From Vulcanimicrobiota bacterium (GTDB lineage Bacteria > Vulcanimicrobiota > Vulcanimicrobiia > Vulcanimicrobiales > Vulcanimicrobiaceae), in the NCBI GenBank assembly GCA_027452165.1, contig DAIDGX010000026.1, positions 13,769-77,768 of the forward strand: DNA of 64,000 bases, read 5' to 3'. Both the position numbers and the translations under genes were made by a program. The notes beneath the pieces were generated by a model. The model made no database searches. It was not told where the DNA came from and saw nothing but the letters and a program-made list of their open reading frames with translations. Below, one piece after another: positions 327 to 39,670 of the stretch; position 1 is the stretch's first letter, and each line of letters opens with the position of its first letter.

Positions 327-1402
327 CGAAGGTATCGCAGCGTGAACTCGAAGCGCGGCTCGCCGCGTCGGTGGCGGAGCTCGAGCGTCAGCGAGCGGCC
401 GTCTTGCATGCAAACCAGCTCAAGAACGACCTGATCGCGGTGCTCGCTCACGATATCAAGGGGCCCCTGACCTCGATCATCGGCTTCTCCGAATTGCTTG
501 AAGAAGGCATGCTCGATGGCGATGCCGCAACCGACGCCGCGCGGACGATTCGCACCAACGCGCAGCGGCTTGCGACGCTTACAAACGACGTGCTCGCGCT
601 TTCGCGCGTCGAACATGGCGAGTTCGAGATCAAGGACGAGCGTGTCGATCTGGCTGCGCTCGCGAAGAAGATGGCGGCTCTGCACGGTAGCGAACGCGAT
701 ATCCGGCTGGACGTGGAGCCCAACGCCCTCGTACGCGGCGATGCAGAACGCCTCGAAGCGGCCCTCGACAACTTGCTTCGTAACGCGATCAAATATGCGC
801 CGGCAAGCGAGCCGATCGATCTGTCGGTGGGCCGCGACGGCGACCGCGTCCTTCTGGCGGTGCGCGACCGCGGCATCGGTATTCCCGAAGGTGAGATCGC
901 GGCGATTTTCGATCGCTTCGCTCGTGGTTCGAATGCGCGGCGCGCGAAGATCGTAGGCAGCGGCATCGGGCTCTTCATCGTGAAGACGATCGTGGAACAG
1001 CACGGGGGAAGCATCGAGGTCCAGAGCGTTCTGGATGGCGGAAGCACCTTTACGGTCGTGCTCCCGAGCCTCGAGTCGCGTGAAGCGCATCGAACGGGGC
1101 GCGTGATTCTCGTTACCGCAGACGGCGCGCTCGCGCGCTTCGCCGCGTACGAGTTGCGCATGCGCGGCCTGCGCGTGCGCGAGGCCGCCACCCTTTCAGA
1201 CGCGCTCGATGGCGTTCGTTCGGGCGATATGTTCGTCGTGGATGAGCGCGTTGCTCGCGCGACCGACCTGCGCGCGATGCTGCCGAACGGTCTCGCCGTC
1301 CGTTTGATCGGCCTCACCGAGACGCCCTCGAACGAGTGGGACGTCGCGCTGCGCCAACCCCTCCTGGTCTCGGACCTCGTCGAGGCGCTAGTAGAGCCGT
1401 AG
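323..1402 (+). CDS. Soluble histidine kinase (HisKA + HATPase_c) with a C-terminal receiver-like domain
   Basis: The ATG at 323 overlaps the upstream stop (ATGA). H-box LAHDIKGPLTSIIGFSELL. ATPase boxes LRNAIKYAP, DRGIGIP and GSGIGLFIV. The C-terminal ~110 aa are REC-like (VILVTADG...MFVVDE). No TM or obvious sensor domain. Confidence 0.85.
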   Translation: MTKVSQRELEARLAASVAELERQRAAVLHANQLKNDLIAVLAHDIKGPLTSIIGFSELLEEGMLDGDAATDAARTIRTNAQRLATLTNDVLALSRVEHGEFEIKDERVDLAALAKKMAALHGSERDIRLDVEPNALVRGDAERLEAALDNLLRNAIKYAPASEPIDLSVGRDGDRVLLAVRDRGIGIPEGEIAAIFDRFARGSNARRAKIVGSGIGLFIVKTIVEQHGGSIEVQSVLDGGSTFTVVLPSLESREAHRTGRVILVTADGALARFAAYELRMRGLRVREAATLSDALDGVRSGDMFVVDERVARATDLRAMLPNGLAVRLIGLTETPSNEWDVALRQPLLVSDLVEALVEP

Positions 1403-2701
1403 GTAGGCGCGGTGCTCCCACGGATGCACGGCGCGCCGATAGGATTCGTATTCGGCGAGCTTCGCGTCGCGGAATGCGTGGTAGAGATGATCGCCGAGCG
1501 ACGCTCGCACGACCGCGTCACCGTCGAGTTCGCTGATCGCCTGTCGAAGCGATTTGGGGAGCACGGCGATCCCCGCTTCGCGCCGTTCACGTTCGGTCAA
1601 TCCGTAGGTGCTGCCGCTATACGATGCGCTTGGCAACGTGGTGCGCTGGACCCCGTCGGACGCGGCGCCGAGCAGCACCGCGAGCGCGAGGTAGGGATTG
1701 CACGCTGGATCGGGGCTGCGCATCTCGATCACATGCGGGCGCTGCGCCGCCGGAACGCGCACGAGCGCGTTGGCGCTACGTTCCGACCAGACGGTATAGA
1801 TGGGAGCGTCCCACGCGGCGACCAAGCGCTTGTAAGAGTTGACGGTGGAGTTACAGATAGCCGTCGTCGCCGGTGCGTGGGCGAGTAGGCCGCCGATCGC
1901 GTAGAGCATCGTCTCTTCATCGGCAGTTGCGTTGAGCATGAAGGCGACGTGCATGCCGCTGCCGGCCCGGTCGGCGATCGGCTTCGGCATGAAGGTCGCG
2001 TCGAGGCCGAAGCCCGCGGCAAGGTGCTTGGCGACGGTCCGTAACGTCAGCACGTTGTCCGCCGCGGCGAGCGGATCGCAGGGCGCGAAGTCGATCTCGT
2101 GCTGGCCGGCACCGTGTTCGTGATGTGCCGAGGCGATACGCATGCCCATCGCGCTGAGCGCAGCAACGATCGCGTTGCGCGCGTCTTCGCCGCGATCGTT
2201 CGCCGAGAAATCAAAGTACGACCCGACGTCGGCGGTGCGCGTCGAATCGTACTCGCTAGCATCGCGCTCAAACAGGTAAAACTCGGCTTCGATGCCGATC
2301 TGTAACCCGGGGAGAACCTGTTGCGCGTCTTCGATTGCGCGGCGCAGCGTGCTGCGCGGGCAGCCTTCGAAAGGTGCGCCGTCCGACATGGCGATGTCGC
2401 AGATCAAGCGCGCTTCGCCGTTCTCGGGCGTGGACCACGGATAGAGTGCGAACGTGGCGGGATCTGGTCGCAGCACCATGTCGAGCTCTTCGCCGCGCAC
2501 AAAACCATCGATCGATCCTCCATCGAAGGTGACGTGGCCGTCGAACGCCGCTTCGAGCTCGCTTGAGGGAATCGAAACGTTCTTACTGACGCCGAAGATG
2601 TCGGCGAAGACCAAGCGCACAAAGCGCACGTTGCGCTCTTTAGCAATCTTGATCGCGTCACGCCGCGTAAGCGCCGGGTGGTGTTTAGGTGTGGAGTGCA
2701 T
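1388..2701 (-). CDS. Glutamine synthetase family protein (type I fold). It could be a true GS or a gamma-glutamyl-amine ligase.
   Basis: 437 aa. Motifs FDGGSIDGF, CPRSTLRR and KP...GSGMHVAF. Its 3' end overlaps the kinase 3' end by 15 nt (convergent). Confidence 0.8.
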   Translation of the reverse strand: MHSTPKHHPALTRRDAIKIAKERNVRFVRLVFADIFGVSKNVSIPSSELEAAFDGHVTFDGGSIDGFVRGEELDMVLRPDPATFALYPWSTPENGEARLICDIAMSDGAPFEGCPRSTLRRAIEDAQQVLPGLQIGIEAEFYLFERDASEYDSTRTADVGSYFDFSANDRGEDARNAIVAALSAMGMRIASAHHEHGAGQHEIDFAPCDPLAAADNVLTLRTVAKHLAAGFGLDATFMPKPIADRAGSGMHVAFMLNATADEETMLYAIGGLLAHAPATTAICNSTVNSYKRLVAAWDAPIYTVWSERSANALVRVPAAQRPHVIEMRSPDPACNPYLALAVLLGAASDGVQRTTLPSASYSGSTYGLTERERREAGIAVLPKSLRQAISELDGDAVVRASLGDHLYHAFRDAKLAEYESYRRAVHPWEHRAYLRLY

Positions 2702-3812
2702 CGATGGCCATCGCTAAGCGGAGGGTGAGTTGATCGTGCTGATCCTCGAGCGTACGCCCGGTGATCTCGCCGATTTGCCGTAGACGGTAGAAGACGGTAT
2801 GACGGTGCACGTTCAACGTGCCTGCCGCCGTTTTGACGTTCTGACCGCTGGCAAAATAGATGCGCAGGGTGCGCTCGAGTTCGGTTTGGTGCTTCTCGTC
2901 GTACGCTCGAAGCGGCAGCAGTACCACGTTCGCGAAGCCGCGTAGCTCTTCGACCGGTGCGCCGCGGTAGAGCATGGGGTATGCGCCGAGTTCGTCGGTC
3001 GAGCAGATGCTGCCGGCGCCGCGCATGCGCCGGACGATCGCAAGGGCGGACTCCGCCTCGCCGATGCCGCGGGCAAGATCGAGCAGCGGGATCGGTCCTG
3101 CAAATCCGCCGGTAACGCGTAAGCCCGGCCGCCGTTTCGCCGCGCCCTTGGGAAGCAGTTGCGCGGCGGTGCGCGCGCGCGCCGCATCGACTTCGCGCTC
3201 GGAGGGAATCAAGACGACGAGCGCCGCGCCGCGCTCCACCATCCCAAGCTCCGCATCGCCGCTACGAAACGTCTCTGAGGCGATCGCACGCAGGTCGGGC
3301 AACGGCTGTGGCTCACCCTCGGCGCTCTCGGCTTCGAGCGCCGCGCAGCAGTAGTGCGTTGCGAGCACGATGCCCCGTGCGGCGGCGTCGTCGCGCGCGG
3401 CGCCCAGGTCGTGGTAGGACGAGCTCGCGAGCGCCTCCCAAAACGAACTGCGGCGCGTGCGTGCGCCGCTGCCGTCGCGTGCGAGTTCGACCGAGATTGC
3501 CGAGGCGGTAAGGCGCGCCGGGAGCTCGAGCGCATCGAGCGCCGGCCCAGCAGCTACGATCGTGAGGTAGCCGAGCGGCACGTCACCGGGACCGATCGGC
3601 ACCGTACGCATGATGCGCTCGTCGCGAACGCGTGCGGACGATGGAAGCGTACCGCGCCCGGCGCTTGCCAGGGGGCGCCACTGCGCGTCCTCGATGAGCA
3701 CGCCGCTACCCGTCCGGTCGGCGAGGAAGGCGGAAAGCGCTTTCGCGCCGCCGCCCGAAGCCGCCACGCGGGCGAGCCCCTCAGCGAACTCGACGAGCTG
3801 GTCGGGAGTCAT
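2685..3812 (-). CDS. PucR-family transcriptional regulator
   Basis: C-terminal PucR-type HTH (LERTLRIYFASGQNVKTAAGTLNVHRHTVFYRLRQIGEITGRTL). The stop overlaps the GS-family start by 17 nt, which implies an operon. Confidence 0.8.
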   Translation of the reverse strand: MTPDQLVEFAEGLARVAASGGGAKALSAFLADRTGSGVLIEDAQWRPLASAGRGTLPSSARVRDERIMRTVPIGPGDVPLGYLTIVAAGPALDALELPARLTASAISVELARDGSGARTRRSSFWEALASSSYHDLGAARDDAAARGIVLATHYCCAALEAESAEGEPQPLPDLRAIASETFRSGDAELGMVERGAALVVLIPSEREVDAARARTAAQLLPKGAAKRRPGLRVTGGFAGPIPLLDLARGIGEAESALAIVRRMRGAGSICSTDELGAYPMLYRGAPVEELRGFANVVLLPLRAYDEKHQTELERTLRIYFASGQNVKTAAGTLNVHRHTVFYRLRQIGEITGRTLEDQHDQLTLRLAMAIDALHT

Positions 3813-5664
3813 GCTTGCGTGGTTCGGCGAAGAAGGCGTACGTTCTTGGAAGGATATGGACGCAGCTGACTTTCGCGAGGTCGTCTCCTCGCTCTTCGAC
3901 GATACACCCGATGCCGTCGTCCTCTACGATGGCGCGGGCCGTGCCATCGGCGCAAACGAGGCGGCGCAACTGCTCACCGGCTACGCCGGCAACCAGATCA
4001 TCGGCTCGTCATATCGCGACCACGTCGCCTCGCGTGATTACGACCGGGTCGATCTTGCTTTGCAGACGGCGCTCGCCGGCGGGACCGACCACTTCGATAC
4101 AAGCGTGCGCCACAAAGACGGCTCCATCGTCCCGGTCGAGTGCTACGTATTTCCGGCGGTCGTCGGTGGCAAGATCGTCGGCGTCTTCGCTCAGGCGCGC
4201 GACATCGTCGCGCTACGCTCGGCCGAAGCTTCGCTGACCTTCAATCAAGAGAAGTTCCGATCGCTCTTCGAGTACCACCCCGACGGAATCATGGAGGTGA
4301 AGGCCGACGGAACGATCTCGCGTGTGAACGTCGCGCTCGAGAGCGAGACGGGTTTCTACGGCGAGCAATTGGTGGGCAAGCAGTGGACGGAACTCGTAAC
4401 GCCGGAGGTGCGTGAGGATGCCGATGAGTTGTTACGCTCGGCGCTGCGTGGCGAAGCGGTTGAGCGCGATAGTTTCCTGCTCGACCGCTTGGGGAATCGC
4501 ATCGACGTGCAACTCAAACTCGTTCCGCTGCGCGTGGGCGAGACGATTCGTGGCGCCTATGCGATCCTCAAAAATGCAAGCGCACAGAAGACGGCCGAAC
4601 GTGCGATCGCCGCGCGCAGCGAGCAGATCCGTCGCCTGTATATGGTCGCGGCCTCGCGCGCTGAGTCGCTCGACGAGCAGATCGATGCGACGCTCGCCCT
4701 CGGCATCGAGCTCTTTGGCTGGGATGAAGGCTACATCGTTCACTTCGCAAAGGACCGCCTCGAGATCCGCAACACGGTCGGATCGGGTCTCCTCAACAAA
4801 GGGGCAACCTATCCGCTGCAGGCGTCGTTCGCGCGCTACGTGCTGGAACCGGGGCGCCGGCAGATATTCATTCGCGATACGGACGAACCTCGCTGGTGCG
4901 ATGATCCCGCGCGTGCCATCGGACCGTGGCGCGCGTACTTCATCGTCGCGTTAGACGTAGGCGACGAAGCCTACGGCGCGCTCGTCTTTGCGGCGCGTTC
5001 GCCCCACTACGAAGAGATCGATCCGGGTGAGCGTGACATGCTGCAACTGATGGGGCTCTTTGCCGCTGCCGCGATCGAGCGCGCCGTGCAGGGGGAACGC
5101 ATCGAACAGATGGCGTTCAACGATCCGCTCACGGGCTTGCCGAACCGGGTGCTCTTCAACGACCGTATCGAGCATACGCTCGCGACTGCCCGCCGGTACG
5201 AGCGTGGCTTTGCGGTCATGTATCTCGACGTCGATAAGTTCAAGGCGGTCAACGACAAGTACGGCCATGCGGTCGGTGACGCGGCGCTCAAGGAGGTAGC
5301 GCTGCGCTTGCGTGCTACCACGCGCGAGAGCGACACGGTTTCGCGCTTCGGCGGCGACGAGTTCGTCATCTTGCAGCCGATCGTCGATGGCCCAAGCGAT
5401 GCGGCGGATCTCGCGCGCAAGCTGAACGTTGCGATGCAGGAGCCGATCGTCATCGACGGCGTGCCGCACCGTGTTTCGGTTAGCGTTGGCATCGCGCTCT
5501 TTCCATCGGACGGCGAGACGATCGCGCAACTCACCGAGGCGGCCGATCGGGCGCTGTACCGGGCCAAGCGCGAGGGGCGTAATCGTTGGTACTTCGCTAA
5601 TGCGGATTTCGCGCGTGGCGAGTTACGTAAGACGCGCTTTCGCCGCCGGGAAGCGATCGAATAA
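3811..5664 (+). CDS. PAS-PAS-GAF-GGDEF diguanylate cyclase
   Basis: Intact GGDEF motif (RFGGDEF) with an RxxD I-site (RESD) 5 aa upstream. Two PAS-like segments and a GAF-like segment lie N-terminal. The start is uncertain. The ATG at 3811 overlaps the divergent PucR start (CATG). The alternative is the ATG at 3856 (MDAADF). Confidence 0.85.
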   Translation: MLAWFGEEGVRSWKDMDAADFREVVSSLFDDTPDAVVLYDGAGRAIGANEAAQLLTGYAGNQIIGSSYRDHVASRDYDRVDLALQTALAGGTDHFDTSVRHKDGSIVPVECYVFPAVVGGKIVGVFAQARDIVALRSAEASLTFNQEKFRSLFEYHPDGIMEVKADGTISRVNVALESETGFYGEQLVGKQWTELVTPEVREDADELLRSALRGEAVERDSFLLDRLGNRIDVQLKLVPLRVGETIRGAYAILKNASAQKTAERAIAARSEQIRRLYMVAASRAESLDEQIDATLALGIELFGWDEGYIVHFAKDRLEIRNTVGSGLLNKGATYPLQASFARYVLEPGRRQIFIRDTDEPRWCDDPARAIGPWRAYFIVALDVGDEAYGALVFAARSPHYEEIDPGERDMLQLMGLFAAAAIERAVQGERIEQMAFNDPLTGLPNRVLFNDRIEHTLATARRYERGFAVMYLDVDKFKAVNDKYGHAVGDAALKEVALRLRATTRESDTVSRFGGDEFVILQPIVDGPSDAADLARKLNVAMQEPIVIDGVPHRVSVSVGIALFPSDGETIAQLTEAADRALYRAKREGRNRWYFANADFARGELRKTRFRRREAIE

Positions 5665-5679
5665 CGATCGTACGCGAGG

Positions 5680-6993
5680 TCAGCCCGTCGGTGCCGGAAA
5701 GAATTGCTGAATCGTCGAGACGACGGTCAGAACGCCGACGATGATGACGGTCGCCCAGGCGATCGTATTGAAGATCACGCCGTTGGTCCACGTTCCCATG
5801 ATGCGCTTGTTGTTGATGAGTAGAAGCATCAAGACGAGCACGATCGGGAGCAAGACGCCATTGAGGACCTGCGAGTAAAAAATGATCGCAAGAAGCGGCG
5901 AGTGTGGGATCAACACGACGCCGCCGCCGATGACGATCAGGGACAGGTAGAGTCCGTAGAAGATCGGCGCCTGTTTGAACGAATTATCGACGCCGCGTTC
6001 GAACCCAAAGGCCTCGCACACGTAGTAGGCGGTCGAGAGCGGAAGGATCGACGCGGTGAAGATCGCCGCGTTGAGCAGCCCGATTGCAAAGAGCAGCGAC
6101 GAGAATTTTCCGGCGAGCGGGGCGAGCGCGGCGGCCACGTCGCCCGCGTCATTGATTTGGAGCGGGTGAACCGCGTGCAGATTATGCAGATAGATGGTCG
6201 CGGCGCTCGAGACGATGATGAAGAACGCGATGATGTCCGTGATGACCGAACCGACGACGACGTCGATACGGCTGTAGTGGTAATCCGCCTTTGTCACGCC
6301 CTTGTCGACCACCGCGGACTGAATGTAAAATTGCATCCATGGCGAGATCGTCGTGCCGATTACGCCGATCGCCATCAAGAGATAGGCGCTCGTTGGGGTA
6401 AAATGCGGGAAGAACGTTTGTTGCGTGACCGCATGCCAGTCGGGGTGGACCAGAACTCCGCTCACGACGTACGAGAGATAGACGATGCAGAAAGCGAAAA
6501 AGACGCGTTCCACGACCTTATAACTGCCGCGCGTGACGGTGATAAAGACAAATGCGGCCGCCAGCGGCACGAGCAGAAACTTCGAGAGAAGCGGTACGTA
6601 GGTTTGGAGGATCGGCGCCGCCGAAGCGATGCCGGCGAATTCGGCCGCCGTGTTGCCAAGGTCGCCGAATACGAAGAGCGCCAAGACCCAGAACGTCACC
6701 TTGACGCCGAAATTCTCGCGGATGAGATCGGCGAGTCCCTTGCCCGTGATCGCGCCCATACGCGCGCACATCTCTTGGGTGACGATGAGAGCGACGGTTA
6801 CCGGGATGAGTAGCCAAAGCAACGTGTAGCCGAACTGCGCTCCGGCAAGCGAGTAGGTGGTGATGCCGCCGACGTCGTTGTCGGCGTTGGCCGTGATAAT
6901 CCCGGGGCCGATGATCGAAAGGAACATCAATGCCGAGCGCATCCACATGCGCAAGCGCGGCTTCGGCGAGAGTGCGGGCGGCAATGCTTGCAT
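5680..6993 (-). CDS. NRAMP/SLC11-family transporter with a non-canonical metal site (NRMT-like, putative Mg2+ transporter)
   Basis: 437 aa, about 11 TM. The NRAMP TM1 signature GPGIITANADNDVGG reads D-V-G-G where canonical MntH has D-P-G-N. TM6 reads GTTISPW where canonical has GA.VMPH. The gene lies 6 nt downstream of the MgtE-N/CBS gene, behind an M-box. Confidence 0.9.
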   Translation of the reverse strand: MQALPPALSPKPRLRMWMRSALMFLSIIGPGIITANADNDVGGITTYSLAGAQFGYTLLWLLIPVTVALIVTQEMCARMGAITGKGLADLIRENFGVKVTFWVLALFVFGDLGNTAAEFAGIASAAPILQTYVPLLSKFLLVPLAAAFVFITVTRGSYKVVERVFFAFCIVYLSYVVSGVLVHPDWHAVTQQTFFPHFTPTSAYLLMAIGVIGTTISPWMQFYIQSAVVDKGVTKADYHYSRIDVVVGSVITDIIAFFIIVSSAATIYLHNLHAVHPLQINDAGDVAAALAPLAGKFSSLLFAIGLLNAAIFTASILPLSTAYYVCEAFGFERGVDNSFKQAPIFYGLYLSLIVIGGGVVLIPHSPLLAIIFYSQVLNGVLLPIVLVLMLLLINNKRIMGTWTNGVIFNTIAWATVIIVGVLTVVSTIQQFFPAPTG

Positions 6994-6999
6994 GACGCG

Positions 7000-8292
7000 T
7001 TAGCTGTCCTTCGTTGCGCGCACGGCGTGCCGGGTGATCTTGGGAAGGCGTTTTGCGAGGTCGGCAGGCATGATCGCGTCGATCGCGTCATCGACGGTGA
7101 CGATGCCGAGCATTCGTCCCTGAGCATCGACGACCGGTGCGGCGAGCATGTCGTACCGCGCGATCGTCGCGGCCACTTCATCGGCCGGCGTATCGGGCTG
7201 GATCGTGACGACGTCGGACTGCATGATCGAATCGATGCTCGCCTGTGGATCCGCGAGCAAGAGCGTGCGAAGACTCAAGACGCCGAGCAATAAGTCGCTC
7301 TTATCGACGACGTAGAGGTAGTAGATGAACTCGGAGGTCGGTGCGATTTCGCGAATCTTTCGGATCGTCGCCTCGGCCGTACGATGCGGAAATATCCACG
7401 TATAGTCGGTCGTCATCAATCCGCCGGCTGAATCCTCGGGGTATTGCACGAGCGCGCGCAACTCGCTTGCCGTGTATTCGTTCATCTCGGCGAGCAGCTC
7501 TTGTTGGCGGTCTTCGTCGAGTTCGGCGAGGAGATCGGCTGCGTCGTCGGCGTCCATCTCTTCGATGATGTCCGCGGCGCGTTCGGTGCCGATATCTTCG
7601 ATCAGCGAGCGCTGCGTGTCGGCGTCGAGATGCTCGAAGGCGTCCGCTGCGGTCTCGTCGTCAAGTTGGCGGACGACGGCGGCGGCTTCGCGCGTGGAGA
7701 GGTCGCCGATGATCTCGGCGAGCTCCGAGGGGTGCAGACGTGCGAGCTTGCTCTCTTTGACCGAGAGGCTGACCTGGGCGGGGTTGTTCTCGCGGATCGG
7801 CGCAACGGAATCCCACGCGATCATCGCGCGCGGGATCGAACGATAGATTCCCGGCGTGAAGCGTTTGCCGAACGACTTTAACCCGAGGCGGCGCAGCAAG
7901 CCCGCAACGCCCACATCGGCGGCGACCACACGCAGTGCGTTGCCCGCGCGTGCGATTTCCAAATCGTTGATGCGTACGACCTTACGGCCATCGACATCGA
8001 CGATCTGCTTATCGAGCAAGTCGGCGATCAAATAGAGGGCATCTTGCTCGGGTGGCGCGGGCTCTTTCGGTGTGGTCGTGAGGGCGATCGATCCCTGCGC
8101 ATCAACGTCGCCGACGGTCTCGATCGGTGCGTAGCGCGCCCCCTGCGACGTCTTGATGACCAGACCGTCGATTTTTGGGAAGACGTCGTCGGGCTTGTTC
8201 ACGAGAAAATCGGTCACTTTGCCGATCGGGATGTCGTTGACGGTCGCCTTACGCCCGACGAGTTCGGAAATGAAGCCTTCCGCGAACGCCAT
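7000..8292 (-). CDS. Soluble PRC-barrel + MgtE N-terminal domain + CBS-pair protein (MgtE cytoplasmic module without the membrane pore)
   Basis: 430 aa. The N-terminus is PRC-barrel-like (GKVTDFLVNKPDDVFPKIDGLVIK). The acidic helical MgtE_N region reads LHPSELAEIIGDLSTREAAAVVRQLDDETAADAFEHLDADT...DAADLLAELDEDRQQELLAEM. Two CBS motifs follow. There are no TM helices. SD GGGGAGG lies 9 nt upstream of the ATG. Confidence 0.85.
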   Translation of the reverse strand: MAFAEGFISELVGRKATVNDIPIGKVTDFLVNKPDDVFPKIDGLVIKTSQGARYAPIETVGDVDAQGSIALTTTPKEPAPPEQDALYLIADLLDKQIVDVDGRKVVRINDLEIARAGNALRVVAADVGVAGLLRRLGLKSFGKRFTPGIYRSIPRAMIAWDSVAPIRENNPAQVSLSVKESKLARLHPSELAEIIGDLSTREAAAVVRQLDDETAADAFEHLDADTQRSLIEDIGTERAADIIEEMDADDAADLLAELDEDRQQELLAEMNEYTASELRALVQYPEDSAGGLMTTDYTWIFPHRTAEATIRKIREIAPTSEFIYYLYVVDKSDLLLGVLSLRTLLLADPQASIDSIMQSDVVTIQPDTPADEVAATIARYDMLAAPVVDAQGRMLGIVTVDDAIDAIMPADLAKRLPKITRHAVRATKDS

Positions 8293-8324
8293 GCTGCACT
8301 ACCTCCCCTCTCATCAGTCGCCAC

Positions 8325-8358
8325 AAAGAAAACGCCGTCCACCTCGTCGGTGTCGGCG
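8325..8358 (-). terminator. Intrinsic terminator that forms the expression platform of the M-box riboswitch
   Basis: The minus strand reads CGCCGACACC-GACGA-GGUGGACGGCG followed by UUUUCUUU. It lies between the aptamer and the SD/ATG of the 7000-8292 gene. Confidence 0.6.
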
Positions 8359-8387
8359 CGAAAGAGAAGAGAACCAAGCGGTCGTCC

Positions 8388-8560
8388 TACCCCATCGTCC
8401 GAGCTTTGGCACCACGCGTCGTAGAGGGCTCGCCTTTCGAGCCTCAGCCGCGTTAGACACCGCCTTAGCTCGGCGTAGTCTGTTCTACCTCACTTGGCGT
8501 CTCTCGACGTTTCGGGGCAGCGGCTTGTGTATCGCGTGGACGCCTCACCTAGCGAGGTAT
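8388..8560 (-). promoter_or_regulatory. M-box (ykoK leader) Mg2+-sensing riboswitch aptamer
   Basis: The minus strand reads CCUCGCUAGGUGAGGCG...AUAC...GCCGCUGCCCCGAAACGUCGAGAGACGCCAAGUGAGGUAGAACAG...GCUAAGGCGGUG...UAACGCGGCUGAGG...GUGCCAAAGCUCGGACGAUGGGG. This matches, block by block, the B. subtilis mgtE M-box as I recall it (GUUAGGUGAGGCU...GCUGCUGCCCAAAAAUGUCCAAAGACGCUAAUGGGUCAACAG...AUAAGGUGAU...UAAUGCAGCUGGAUG...GUGCUAAAGCUCUACGAUUGAAG). Confidence 0.9.
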
Positions 8561-8597
8561 CCTCATCTTAGTATAGGTGGCGCGGTCAACCCTGGAG

Positions 8598-9830
8598 CTA
8601 ACGGAGACCGCCAAGCACGATCGAGGTGAGGGCTTGGGTACTCACCTCCATCTGGGAGAGCACGCTCGTCCCCACGCTGACCAGAATCTGCGCTCGCGTA
8701 AACTGCGTCGTGGCCGTTCCGATGTTGAGATCGCGAATCGAGCTCTCGCTTGCGGTCTGATTGACCACTTGAATCGATGCATCGTTCGCAGCCTCGTTGA
8801 GGGAGACCATCTGCGCGCCGAGTTGCGCGCGCTCGCCTACCACCGTGGTGATCGCGTTGTCGAGTCGCGCCTCCGATGCCTGATTCGTCAACAGATCGCC
8901 GACCTGCGTCTCGCCGATGCCGAGATTGTTCGTGCTCACGCCGCCGATCGAGATCGCGATCGTCGAGCCTTCGCTCGTGCCCGTATTGACTTCGAGTGGA
9001 TGACCGTTCGTCGCCGATTGCGGCGGTATCGTTACGACGATCCCTGTCTGCCCCACGTCCGCGGTCGTAATGTTGTTGAAGTTGAACTGGAATACGGGAT
9101 TGCCGTTGTTGTCAAAGTAGGTGTACGGGCCAACGCCGGGGCCGTATTCGACGAAGTAGTTCGTCCCCGGTGTTACGTGCAACACGTTGGTCTGCGTGGG
9201 CCCAAACGACGGATCGGGGCTCGAGAGGGTAGCGGTGACCTGAATCTGCCCGGTCGTCGCATCGTACGAGTCGATCGAGAAGCTGAACTGCACCGCTTCG
9301 GTGTATGGCGATCCGTTCGTCTGTGTCGGGTCGAGGAGTTGCTGCGTGCCGCCGTTGACCAAAGGATTGGAGACGAAGAGGTTCTGTTCCGCGGTTGCTT
9401 GTTGGTTCGAGAGGCTCCCGTCGAGGAGGTTCAGGCCGTTGAAGTTCGTGTTGGCCGCGATGCGATTGACCTCGAGCAGCAACTGATTGATCTCGGTTTG
9501 AATCGCGGCGAGGTTGTCTGCCGAGTTGAGATCGGAGTTGGCCTCCACGACGAGGGATCGCGCGCGTTGAAGGATCTCCGTGATCGTCGCGAGCCCTCCG
9601 TCGGCAACGGTCAGCGCGTTGTTCGCGGTCTGCACGCTCGTGATGCCTTGCTGGAGGCCGTTGCTGACGCTTTGCAACTTCTCGGCAATGGCCAGTCCGC
9701 TCGGATCGTCCGCTGCGGAGTTGATACGCAAGCCCGAAGAGAGTTGCTTCGTGAGGTTTGCAAACGTGGCTTGGTTCTGATCGAGGTTGAGCAGAACGCT
9801 GTTGAAGCTGTCGCTGAATCCGATGCGCAT
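8598..9830 (-). CDS. fliC: Flagellin
   Basis: 410 aa. Conserved N-terminal helix region ...LSSGLRINSAADDPSGLAIAEKLQS... and conserved C-terminal region ...TQFTRAQILVSVGTSVLSQ.... The central domain is variable and N/T/Q-rich. No other flagellar genes are adjacent. Confidence 0.9.
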   Translation of the reverse strand: MRIGFSDSFNSVLLNLDQNQATFANLTKQLSSGLRINSAADDPSGLAIAEKLQSVSNGLQQGITSVQTANNALTVADGGLATITEILQRARSLVVEANSDLNSADNLAAIQTEINQLLLEVNRIAANTNFNGLNLLDGSLSNQQATAEQNLFVSNPLVNGGTQQLLDPTQTNGSPYTEAVQFSFSIDSYDATTGQIQVTATLSSPDPSFGPTQTNVLHVTPGTNYFVEYGPGVGPYTYFDNNGNPVFQFNFNNITTADVGQTGIVVTIPPQSATNGHPLEVNTGTSEGSTIAISIGGVSTNNLGIGETQVGDLLTNQASEARLDNAITTVVGERAQLGAQMVSLNEAANDASIQVVNQTASESSIRDLNIGTATTQFTRAQILVSVGTSVLSQMEVSTQALTSIVLGGLR

Positions 9831-39583: not shown

Positions 39584-39670
39584 GGAGAGGTGGCAGAGTG
39601 GTTTAATGCAGCGGTCTTGAAAACCGCAGAACCTTCACGGGTTCCGAGGGTTCGAATCCCTCCCTCTCCT
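39584..39670 (+). tRNA. tRNA-Ser (anticodon UGA)
   Basis: Acceptor stem GGAGAGG/CCTCTCC. D-arm GCAGAGTGGTTTAATGC. Anticodon stem-loop GCGGT-CTTGAAA-ACCGC. Long variable arm AGAACCTTCACGGGTTCCG. T-arm GAGGG-TTCGAAT-CCCTC. Confidence 0.9.

Follow-up and report, generated by a model that had tools for sequence, protein, structure and literature searches.

MgtE and CorA limit Mg2+ flux via built-in cytoplasmic Mg2+ sensors. Most genes for the NRAMP-related Mg2+ transporters (NRMTs, NrmT) adjoin one that encodes the cytoplasmic N-terminal domain of MgtE, in many cases following an M-box, and Shin et al. (2014, PLoS Genet, PMC4072509), who called these loci 'mgtE-nramp operons' (their Fig. S5), raised the idea of trans-regulation by speculating on 'cytoplasmic feedback regulation of transport'. 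In a B. subtilis strain deficient in Mg2+ transport, NrmT genes linked to an M-box gave rescue, with NrmT alone complementing, and a first co-expression test with the A. capsulatum pair ACP2976/2977 showed no effect on rescue; ACP2977, from a pair without an M-box, rescued a Mn2+-uptake mutant and Mg2+ uptake only poorly (PMC4072509). EleNRMT has been found to carry Mg2+ and Mn2+ without H+ coupling (PMC8806188), and in MgtE the module homologous to the soluble partner is a conformational switch, not a carrier (PMC5882242).

The operon analyzed here lies in a 64,000-nucleotide stretch of Vulcanimicrobiota DNA (the window) and is an Eremiobacterota member of this known M-box 'mgtE-fragment / nrmT' operon type, with a stand-alone gene for an MgtE cytoplasmic domain directly upstream of, and co-oriented with, nrmT. 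The earlier note on this DNA, which took a soluble MgtE-like partner of NRMTs to be undescribed, was mistaken on that point, as such partners are already in the 2014 paper. Our overall reading, toward which we lean, is that of a known operon type in which an M-box switch controls a Mg2+-importing NRMT and a partner protein that would act as a Mg2+-operated brake in trans and be dispensable for transport. The features are as follows.

8384..8563, minus strand: M-box (ykoK-type) Mg2+ riboswitch aptamer, match to RF00380
8360..8373, minus strand: pyrimidine tract UUCUCUUCUCUUUC, complementary to the Shine-Dalgarno region; candidate anti-Shine-Dalgarno (anti-SD) element
8325..8359, minus strand: intrinsic terminator made up of an interrupted 10-bp hairpin (8359-8332) followed by a U-tract (8332-8325), read from the sequence
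8302..8312, minus strand: Shine-Dalgarno region GAGAGGGGAGG of the partner gene, 9 nt 5' of the ATG at 8292, read from the sequence
7000..8292, minus strand: partner gene, encoding a 430-residue soluble protein (two probable PRC barrels, MgtE_N, CBS pair, basic tail; no pore), from Pfam and NCBIfam scans
7813..8292, minus strand: PRC-barrel region, most likely tandem (residues 1-72 and 85-160), from Pfam PRC and the AF2 model
7432..7737, minus strand: MgtE_N domain, residues 186-287, with D217, D249 and D253, from Pfam and alignment to 2yvy
7069..7428, minus strand: CBS pair, residues 289-408, with D381, D402 and D405, from Pfam and alignment to 2yvy
7003..7068, minus strand: basic C-terminal tail MPADLAKRLPKITRHAVRATKDS, from alignments A2 and A1
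5680..6993, minus strand: gene for a 437-residue SLC11/NRAMP transporter assigned to the NRMT clade, from Pfam and the EleNRMT match

An Rfam cmscan of the window found an RF00380 (M-box, ykoK leader) match that scores 123.8 bits, where 44 is the gathering score (E = 2.9e-27), and that runs the length of the model (1-169 of 169), and this covariance-model check bears out the M-box called in the earlier note. With model R1, built here with the window sequence in its seed, the score is 172 bits. The aptamer and the genes are on the same strand, with 91 nt between the aptamer end and the partner-gene ATG. In this interval, 25 nt past the aptamer and 33 nt ahead of the ATG, a GC-rich hairpin that is found in both the MFE and centroid folds of the leader runs into UUUUCUUU, so that the leader does possess its own terminator, as had been claimed. 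A simple terminator scanner did not call the terminator at 8325-8359, because its hairpin has bulges; a comparable hairpin and U-tract lie 3' of the M-box in seven related leaders (L002, L003, L004, L006, L013, L035 and L081). The pyrimidine tract pairs with 8302-8312 in the leader MFE fold, the energy of which is no better than that of shuffled sequences (z = 0.44), and we regard it as a possible anti-SD element, a lead only. The M-box is an established Mg2+-repressing switch, and by analogy with the family the operon would be Mg2+-repressed: at high cytosolic Mg2+ the M-box would compact and the hairpin and U-tract would end transcription ahead of the first gene, and at low Mg2+ transcription would read through.

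The partner protein matches Pfam MgtE_N (94.7 bits, residues 186-287) and, in two stretches, CBS (60.9 bits), and the Pfam scan gave no match to the MgtE pore domain PF01769 in this protein. Against TIGR00400 it scores 208.7, short of the 232.75 cut-off, in an alignment confined to profile positions 23-252 of 450, and its ORF stops 22 residues past the second CBS domain. The predicted protein is thus the soluble part of MgtE that the earlier note described, an N domain and CBS pair with acidic regulatory (putative Mg2+) sites and without the C-terminal five-helix pore domain of an MgtE channel. The whole protein also matches Pfam PRC (PF05239) at 27.1 bits against a cut-off of 21.2, and its two PRC halves, scanned singly, score 15.1 and 20.0 bits, with 26-28 bits for the halves in relatives, 26-47 bits over all the relatives scanned, and PRC matched in 94 of 116 family representatives. 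The PRC region has the conserved motif DVGxxGLLRRLG...W160, and the AF2 model (mean pLDDT 74.7) has two β-rich N-terminal domains (pLDDT 57-89). A PRC region ahead of MgtE_N is present, as had been noted, but the single barrel proposed is most likely two tandem barrels. At the other end of the protein the basic tail (family consensus LPxxWKKRLPRxF) stands where MgtE has its acidic plug helix; P409 is invariant in alignment A2, and in the AF2 model a short helix (410-415) gives way to disorder.

The best PDB sequence match of the partner is the T. thermophilus MgtE (TtMgtE) cytosolic domain, 2yvy (148 bits, 38% identity), and the same Mg2+-bound structure is the top Foldseek match of the AF2 model (TM 0.81, normalized to the target). 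When aligned to 2yvy, partner residues D217, D249 and D253 correspond to TtMgtE E59, D91 and D95 (Mg7, Mg4 and Mg6 sites), and D381, D402 and D405 to D226, D247 and D250 (Mg5 and Mg4 sites; TtMgtE residues from PMC5882242). All six equivalents are acidic in the window partner. Among the 116 family representatives, five of these positions (E59, D91, D95, D247 and D250) are acidic in 78-100%, the first three in 91%, 91% and 100%, and the D226 equivalent in just 32%. At the ATP site (TtMgtE residues from PMC5529423) Y325 and R342 are kept, and T343, Q358 and M382 take the place of D188, N203 and F227, so that three of the five ATP-contact side chains are changed.

Our survey, which extends the 2014 work, took in 80 loci spread over about ten bacterial phyla and two lineages of archaea; 74 of them were evaluable for adjacency and about 75 for the M-box. 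The pairing proved to be strongly conserved across many phyla, an NRMT gene lying directly downstream of the partner gene on the same strand in 63 of the 74 evaluable loci (85%), and many of the pairs have 4-nt start/stop overlaps. An M-box is found in only 13 of about 75 loci and is absent in ~83%; all 13, and likewise L081 and L082 beyond the 80, carry both genes. The remaining 11 of 74 loci hold an intact orphan partner gene with no adjacent NRMT, and therefore the partner would there act at a distance or have another target. Five of these orphans are from Eremiobacterota, and four (L005, L008, L010 and L011) are otherwise syntenic but have neither the M-box nor the NRMT and GGDEF genes. 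Pairwise identities of partners and NRMTs show no rank co-variation (Spearman 0.05; Pearson 0.60), and within Eremiobacterota three NRMT types, ~50% identical to one another, are found behind partners that are 70-83% identical. No partner-NRMT fusion was found among the top 150 representatives.

The orphans, above all the four syntenic ones in which both M-box and NRMT are missing, and the decoupled phylogenies of partner and NRMT are what would be expected if the partner were a general cytoplasmic Mg2+ or adenine-nucleotide sensor with a main target other than the NRMT, for example another transporter or a signaling protein, and adjacency to nrmT reflected co-regulation only. Adenosine ligands are common for CBS pairs and MgtE_N is FliG-like, which also fits such a sensor. 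We nonetheless consider it unlikely, since it is difficult to account for 85% adjacency in an unvarying order, with 4-nt overlaps recurring in bacterial phyla and in archaea, unless the two genes are directly linked in function, every M-box locus found carries both genes, and the ATP-stacking residue F227 has become Met or Leu.

A metal chaperone or buffer, the alternative offered by Shin et al. (PMC4072509), would bind incoming Mg2+ (or Mn2+) at its acidic sites and pass it along or retain it close to where it leaves the transporter, leaving the transport rate unchanged, in keeping with the lack of effect of co-expression on rescue. The partner has many acidic sites and is co-expressed one-to-one with the transporter. 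Free Mg2+ in cells is millimolar, however, and at this concentration stoichiometric buffering or chaperoning by a protein is hardly sensible in quantitative terms. In addition, the MgtE module switches conformation rather than carrying metal, and the closest pore-bearing relatives of the partner, PRC-MgtE channels of ~600 residues that fall among the soluble forms in at least three clusters and four singletons of a rough NJ tree, place the same module in a gating position. These considerations make a chaperone or buffer quite unlikely.

The transporter gene starts exactly 6 nt (6994-6999) after the partner stop codon, in the same frame, and its product matches Pfam Nramp at 311.7 bits across the full profile, so the complete NRAMP/SLC11 gene described earlier is indeed there. 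The protein aligns with EleNRMT (7qia) over residues 22-430 at 334 bits, as compared with 92 bits for DraNramp and no more than that for canonical MntH structures. Its site residues are D40, G43, E118, T214, S217, W219, I224 and Q375. In NRMTs the Asp is kept, the α1 Asn is Gly, the α6 Ala is Thr and the Met is a small residue (Ramanadane 2022); the window transporter has D40, G43, T214 and, at the Met position, S217, which is Ala in EleNRMT. This gives a widened D-x-x-G / T-x-x-S site, and both α6b histidines are gone, their positions being W219 and I224 here and W229 and N234 in EleNRMT. All of the partner-linked NRMTs (n = 60) have D-x-x-G and T-x-x-A/S/T, never Met. By its scores and residues the transporter belongs to the NRMT (magnesium) clade, and the M-box and homology suggest that it transports Mg2+.

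Could the transporter mainly import Mn2+, or another transition metal, with the pair serving manganese homeostasis? ACP2977 of A. capsulatum behaved in this way, EleNRMT also carries Mn2+, and the window transporter has Ser where EleNRMT has Ala227. Against this, the operon lies behind a high-scoring M-box, Thr214, the equivalent of which is needed for Mg2+ in EleNRMT, is present, and Ser or Thr also stands at the Ala227 position in other M-box-linked NRMTs. Moreover, the M-box-linked homologues tested by Shin and colleagues in 2014 reportedly restored the import of Mg2+ and were unable to take up Mn2+, and we regard a primarily Mn2+-importing role as very unlikely.

That the partner gene is a decaying, functionless mgtE remnant, as its resemblance to MgtE without the membrane half might suggest, is effectively refuted by conservation: one full-length architecture of ~420 residues recurs in over 100 clusters at 50% identity, 33 positions are nearly invariant, the basic tail is a conserved motif that MgtE lacks, and reading frames are intact in 80 of 80 loci.

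We return to the brake in trans. Both genes are on one transcript, 6 nt apart, and so are made together. The SLC11 protein would import Mg2+ (and Mn2+) without H+ coupling, as its close homology to EleNRMT and CabNrmT suggests. The PRC-PRC-MgtE_N-CBS protein would bind Mg2+ at the conserved acidic sites used in MgtE to shut the channel and, when Mg2+-bound, probably docks on the cytoplasmic face of the NRMT and slows import, a fast post-translational brake beside the slower riboswitch. Docking would likely be through the PRC barrels or through the basic tail, which is conserved. Such trans-gating is plausible given the conserved Mg-site residues, the translational coupling and the PRC-MgtE channels with the same module in cis. 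The orphan partners, the M-box absence in most loci, the lack of rank co-variation and the lack of fusions argue against it, and the orphans, the NRMT swaps and the lack of fusions speak against tight coupling. The low share of acidic residues at the D226 equivalent and the three changed ATP-contact side chains also count against the brake. For transport itself the partner appears to be unneeded, as EleNRMT works alone in liposomes although its orthologues carry the partner gene. The negative A. capsulatum co-expression result fits a brake, from which better rescue would not be expected. That pair lacks an M-box and behaved as a Mn2+ system, and so some pairs may sense a ligand other than Mg2+.

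Without H+ coupling, the membrane potential would drive uncontrolled Mg2+ accumulation through an NRMT unless flux were limited. If the partner is a brake in trans, one sensor module would be common to unrelated pore architectures, and the SLC11/NRAMP proteins would gain a soluble regulatory subunit, the first known among them. More tentatively, PRC-PRC-MgtE_N-CBS might be a portable Mg2+-operated gate that closes the MgtE pore in cis, in the PRC-MgtE channels, and, via the PRC barrels or the tail, the structurally unrelated LeuT-fold SLC11 protein in trans. The window adds one more example of the operon type, and the comparative data offer concrete points of attack for biochemistry, namely the Mg-site residues, the basic tail, the tandem PRC barrels, the cis PRC-MgtE relatives and the partner gene native to EleNRMT orthologues.

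The operons that Shin et al. described (C. acetobutylicum Ca_c0685 and Ca_c3329; A. capsulatum ACP2976/2977, which lacks an M-box) share with the window the order M-box, MgtE-cytoplasmic-domain gene and NrmT-clade gene on one strand, the same regulatory logic and the same proposed role for the partner. The window differs in phylum (Eremiobacterota/Vulcanimicrobiota) and in having a single partner gene, which is split in two in the Ca_c0685 operon. The partner's probable tandem PRC N-terminus and its basic tail are absent from the 2014 text, where 'PRC' occurs 0 times; both features, like the cis-acting PRC-MgtE relatives, appear not to have been described. MgtE of T. thermophilus (PDB 2YVX, 2ZY9 and 2YVY) has a homologous N domain and CBS pair, and its acidic Mg4-Mg7 residues are kept in the window partner. 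The partner, however, has no five-helix pore domain, a basic tail in place of the acidic plug helix, ~180 extra N-terminal residues that most likely form the two PRC barrels, and the three altered ATP-contact side chains. In the uncharacterized PRC-MgtE channels (for example P0152, P0158, P0165 and P0238) the first ~410 residues have the architecture of the window partner, which aligns with them end to end at 35-42% identity, but they continue into an acidic plug region and PF01769 (8 of 10 tested), so that there the module works in cis. Among structures, the best homologue of the transporter is EleNRMT of Eggerthella lenta (PDB 7QIA, 7QIC, 7QJI and 7QJJ; Ramanadane et al. 2022), whose D55, G58, E133, T224, W229 and Q379 are D40, G43, E118, T214, W219 and Q375 in the window transporter; Ala227 and Asn234 differ, being Ser217 and Ile224. 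Partner, operon and riboswitch are unmentioned in the EleNRMT paper (PMC8806188), and the Eggerthellaceae loci are without an M-box, unlike the window operon. Close EleNRMT orthologues from Eggerthellaceae (91-92% identical to EleNRMT) have the same PRC-MgtE_N-CBS gene 4 nt upstream, a native partner gene that matters because EleNRMT structures and transport assays already exist.

The window carries on its minus strand an M-box leader followed by two genes, the first encoding a soluble protein, hereafter the partner, and the second a transporter of the SLC11/NRAMP magnesium clade (NRMT).

Features of the operon in the window
8384-8563, minus strand: full-length M-box (RF00380; Rfam cmscan, 123.8 bits, gathering score 44, E 2.9e-27)
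8359-8332, minus strand: terminator, a bulged GC-rich 10-bp hairpin, followed by UUUUCUUU at 8332-8325
7000-8292, minus strand: partner ORF, 430 aa (Pfam MgtE_N 94.7 bits, CBS in two stretches, PRC 27.1 bits)
5680-6993, minus strand: transporter ORF, 437 aa (whole Pfam Nramp profile matched, 311.7 bits)

The earlier note had read this region as an M-box with its own terminator, a pore-less MgtE_N and CBS protein with a PRC region and, 6 nt downstream, a complete NRAMP/SLC11 transporter. The Rfam model bears out the M-box, scoring far above its gathering score, and a hairpin and U-tract are located where the terminator had been placed. Pfam and NCBIfam scans likewise return the proposed domain composition of the partner, the Nramp profile confirms the transporter, and the gap from the partner stop codon to the transporter ORF is indeed 6 nt. 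We consider it very probable that the operon is as identified and that Mg2+ represses it. Besides the M-box, Rfam matches one further element in this stretch, an 87-nt tRNA-Ser (39584-39670, plus strand; anticodon TGA) with a long variable arm.

The terminator hairpin begins 25 nt downstream of the M-box and was not picked up by a simple consensus scan because it contains bulges; a terminator-type platform is common to several related leaders. The MFE fold of the full leader, in which a terminator/antiterminator alternative was sought, lacks the M-box architecture (z = -1.6), and we therefore assign no antiterminator. A pyrimidine tract just upstream of the terminator (UUCUCUUCUCUUUC, 8360-8373) is complementary to the Shine-Dalgarno region (GAGAGGGGAGG, 8302-8312) and is paired with it in the MFE fold, which is no better than shuffled controls; this pairing could provide a second, translational layer of control. 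A sigma-70 promoter scan upstream of the M-box gave no match. A flagellin-like ORF (8598-9830, minus strand) ends just 34 nt upstream of the M-box (gap region 8564-8600), and the operon promoter may lie inside or upstream of this gene or be non-canonical.

Leaders at related loci in other genomes vary. At L001 the M-box model match (4828-5000) reaches the predicted start codon (...UGAGGUGGAUG), with the partner match running from 5001, such that the P1 3' strand would include the Shine-Dalgarno sequence. This suggests a translational platform at L001, in contrast to the terminator of the window, unless the true start is further downstream. The leaders of L002 and L081 measure 230-265 nt from M-box to start codon and carry, 3' of the terminator, direct repeats of a GC-rich hairpin unit (e.g. 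GGGGGGAAACGGGGGGCCGUGCCGCCCCGUUCUUC, three copies in L081) that look like REP-type insertions. Directly upstream of the partner-NRMT pair of L014, a weak 50-nt M-box model match (4948-4997; 19.8 bits, E 0.006) may be a degraded M-box remnant.

Compared with all PDB sequences, the window transporter matches the crystallised Eggerthella lenta homologue EleNRMT (7QIA) at 334 bits and canonical MntH/DraNramp at no more than 92 bits. It bears the NRMT site signature set out by Ramanadane et al. 2022 (PMC8806188), with Asp40 and Gly43 in alpha1, Thr214 in alpha6 and Gln375 in alpha10; the Met position is filled by a small residue, Ser217, and Trp219 and Ile224 stand at both alpha6b histidine positions of the H+ pathway. 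On these grounds we classify the window transporter as an NRMT. EleNRMT carries Mg2+ and Mn2+ but not Ca2+, operates without H+ coupling and needs the residue corresponding to Thr214 for Mg2+ (PMC8806188).

The partner has no Pfam match to the MgtE pore domain, and NCBIfam TIGR00400 aligns to its cytoplasmic half only, with a score below cut-off. Its closest solved relative is the cytosolic domain of Thermus thermophilus MgtE (TtMgtE; 2YVY, 148 bits, query 182-413). In an AlphaFold2 model based on 42 aligned sequences (mean pLDDT 74.7), residues 1-72 and 85-160 each form a beta-rich domain; they are followed by a disordered linker (164-182), a helical MgtE_N domain (183-282), a CBS pair (289-408) and a short C-terminal helix with a disordered tail. 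By Foldseek, the model fits cytosolic domains of Mg2+-bound MgtE with a target-normalised TM of 0.81 and an rmsd of 2.7 Å. Scanned alone, each N-terminal half matches Pfam PRC, with a weak score in the window and scores above threshold in relatives, and the N-terminus is most likely a tandem PRC barrel.

The TtMgtE Mg-site residues mutated by Maruyama et al. 2018 (PMC5882242), E59 (Mg7), D91 (Mg4), D95 (Mg6), D226 (Mg5), D247 (Mg4) and D250 (Mg5), align with partner D217, D249, D253, D381, D402 and D405, positions that are acidic in 91, 91, 100, 32, 90 and 78%, respectively, of 116 family representatives clustered at 50% identity. For MgtE delta-N, an assay of Co2+/Ni2+ or high-Mg2+ sensitivity has exposed a loss of gating. 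The MgtE ATP site (Tomita et al. 2017, PMC5529423) is partly retained: Y325 and R342 are kept, and D188, N203 and F227 of MgtE are replaced by T343, Q358 and M382. In place of the acidic plug helix that follows the second CBS domain of MgtE, the partner family has a conserved basic motif, LPxxWKKRLPRxF, which in the window reads MPADLAKRLPKITRH.

Close homologues are found in Eremiobacterota/Vulcanimicrobiota MAGs (Baltobacteraceae, Vulcanimicrobiaceae), which places the window in that phylum. An exhaustive HMMER search over 1.84 billion representatives yielded 1174 proteins at E <= 1e-30; 118 of the best 150 are 400-470 aa long, and nearly all of these align from window residue ~7 to ~410-420, PRC region included. 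No partner-NRMT fusion was found among the best 150. Scanning one genome per species with a 14-sequence alignment (A2) gave 80 loci in Eremiobacterota, Chloroflexota, Dormibacterota, Acidobacteriota, Nitrospirota, Desulfobacterota, Armatimonadota, Actinomycetota and Firmicutes and, among archaea, in Methanobacteriaceae and Methanocella. The pairing seen in the window is conserved in these genomes: of 74 loci with enough downstream DNA, 63 have a co-oriented NRMT directly after the partner gene, at gaps of -48 to +154 nt and with 4-nt overlaps in many. All 60 full-length linked NRMTs carry the D-x-x-G / T-x-x-(A/S/T) signature. At four loci (L022, L037, L068, L071) a single partner gene precedes two tandem NRMT genes, and at L039 (6020-7353) the downstream NRMT may be a pseudogene: its ORF is truncated, and tblastn matches it weakly in two separate segments (127 and 97 bits). 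We rejected the idea that the partner is the cytoplasmic half of a split MgtE with its pore encoded adjacently: no MgtE pore gene adjoins it, and 85% of loci have an SLC11 gene in that place.

The M-box is much rarer than the NRMT pairing. A covariance model made from seven Rfam-confirmed M-boxes placed one directly upstream of the partner at 13 of ~75 loci with enough upstream DNA (some Eremiobacterota, Thermoleophilia/Actinomycetota and one each in Desulfuromonadaceae, Firmicutes and Chloroflexia), all 13 of which also carry an NRMT. This agrees with the wording 'sometimes associated' of Shin et al. (PMC4072509).

In the mechanism that we propose, the leader, by its sequence a Mg2+ 'off' riboswitch that acts through a terminator, governs a bicistronic transcript, and the transporter, by its close homology, would import Mg2+ electrogenically without H+ coupling. 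The partner would take up Mg2+ at its MgtE-type acidic sites and in its loaded form restrain the NRMT, a brake that would give fast feedback beside the slow transcriptional switch. The best candidates for a docking surface are the PRC barrels or the basic tail, favored because they set the family apart from canonical MgtE. We put this trans-gating forward tentatively, at somewhat below even odds.

Relatives of the partner contain the same module in cis. Proteins of ~600 aa make up 17 of the best 150 representatives, and eight of ten long forms tested (P0152, P0153, P0158, P0165, P0168, P0238, P0262 and P0269) are PRC-MgtE channels that have an acidic plug region and join two N-terminal PRC barrels, MgtE_N and CBS domains to an MgtE pore domain; the other two (P0235, P0248) have a hydrophobic C-terminus without a Pfam match. 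In some lineages PRC-PRC-N-CBS is therefore a module that gates channels. The long forms lie scattered among soluble ones in a rough, weak NJ tree, which suggests repeated fission or fusion.

Two EleNRMT orthologues (91-92% identical, one from Paraeggerthella hongkongensis) have, 4 nt upstream, a gene for a 450-aa PRC-MgtE_N-CBS protein with 35% identity to window partner residues 7-407 (Eggerthellaceae loci L083-L087; partner ~2644-3996, NRMT from 4001). These loci lack an M-box; they have a tRNA gene in the upstream intergenic region and a convergent Rrf2-family regulator gene downstream. Since EleNRMT alone moves Mg2+ in liposomes, the partner is an accessory, dispensable for transport. An inhibitory accessory would also account for the result of Shin et al. 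(PMC4072509) that co-expression of the Acidobacterium capsulatum pair, which has no M-box, gave no better rescue.

Other roles have to be weighed against this brake. The partner might be a chaperone or buffer. It might also be a sensor with other targets. At 11 loci an intact partner lacks an NRMT. Four of these, in Eremiobacterota (L005, L008, L010, L011), hold a partner gene (5001-6290) 70-75% identical to that of the window, in the order MatE, partner, PucR-like, GlnA-like. They are otherwise syntenic with window 1388-8563 and with L081 (MatE, M-box, partner, NRMT, PAS-GGDEF, PucR-like, GlnA-like; relative P0053 stood in for the window partner in the contig look-up), with the M-box, NRMT and PAS-GGDEF genes missing. 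There is no room for an M-box, as MatE and partner are 15 nt apart in L008, L010 and L011 and overlap in L005. A further orphan, L009, has different neighbors. An orphan sensor that stays intact suggests that the partner does more than serve the transporter next to it. The PAS-GGDEF gene, a 684-aa diguanylate-cyclase-like gene in the window (3610-5664, plus strand), converges on the NRMT with stop codons 15 nt apart, has the same position in L081 and L082 and is absent along with the NRMT from the orphan loci.

Moreover, the two genes have separate histories within Eremiobacterota. Across species of this phylum, partners are 70-83% identical, and NRMTs appear to fall into three types only ~50% identical to one another, with TM6 motifs TTIS/APWMQFY, TTISPYMQFF and others. 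Comparing window 5680-8292 with L001, L002, L003, L004, L006, L007, L013, L014, L016 and L035, we found 82-83% identity for the partner and 48-51% for the NRMT against L001 and L002, and 61-70% and 71-75%, respectively, against L004 and L013. The window thus joins a partner of the L001 kind (82%) to an NRMT of the L004/L013 kind (71-75%), which suggests that the NRMT was replaced or recombined behind a conserved partner. Orphans and decoupling are some evidence against tight partner-NRMT coupling. A mirror-tree of the two families was ambiguous (Pearson 0.60, Spearman 0.05) and was dropped as interaction evidence given its conflicting correlations; if anything, it reflects decoupling within Eremiobacterota.

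A third possibility is a Mn2+-centred role for the pair: the A. capsulatum transporter acted as a Mn2+ importer in the work of Shin et al. (PMC4072509). That the partner is a dead remnant is ruled out by its conservation.

The earlier note was not aware of a described soluble MgtE-like partner for NRMTs, and here it was anticipated. Shin et al. (PLoS Genet 2014, PMC4072509) identified genes related to Nramp downstream of M-boxes, named them NrmT, restored Mg2+ uptake of a transporter-less B. subtilis strain with M-box-linked NrmT genes and used the label 'mgtE-nramp operons' in Fig. S5; central idea and arrangement are both present. The literature searched from 2015 onward gave no later characterisation of the partner, no paper joining PRC-barrel and MgtE was found in the literature searched, and the EleNRMT paper (PMC8806188) leaves the partner unmentioned. 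The window adds no better handle on the partner question than existing examples. Modestly new are the tandem PRC barrels, the basic tail, the cis-acting PRC-MgtE relatives and the archaeal members, together with the orphan partners, the NRMT swapping behind conserved partners and the partner gene of EleNRMT orthologues, comparative by-products that could steer a decisive experiment. The operon is a real, conserved system, an instance in a poorly studied phylum of the operon type described in 2014, for which the hypothesis is already in print.
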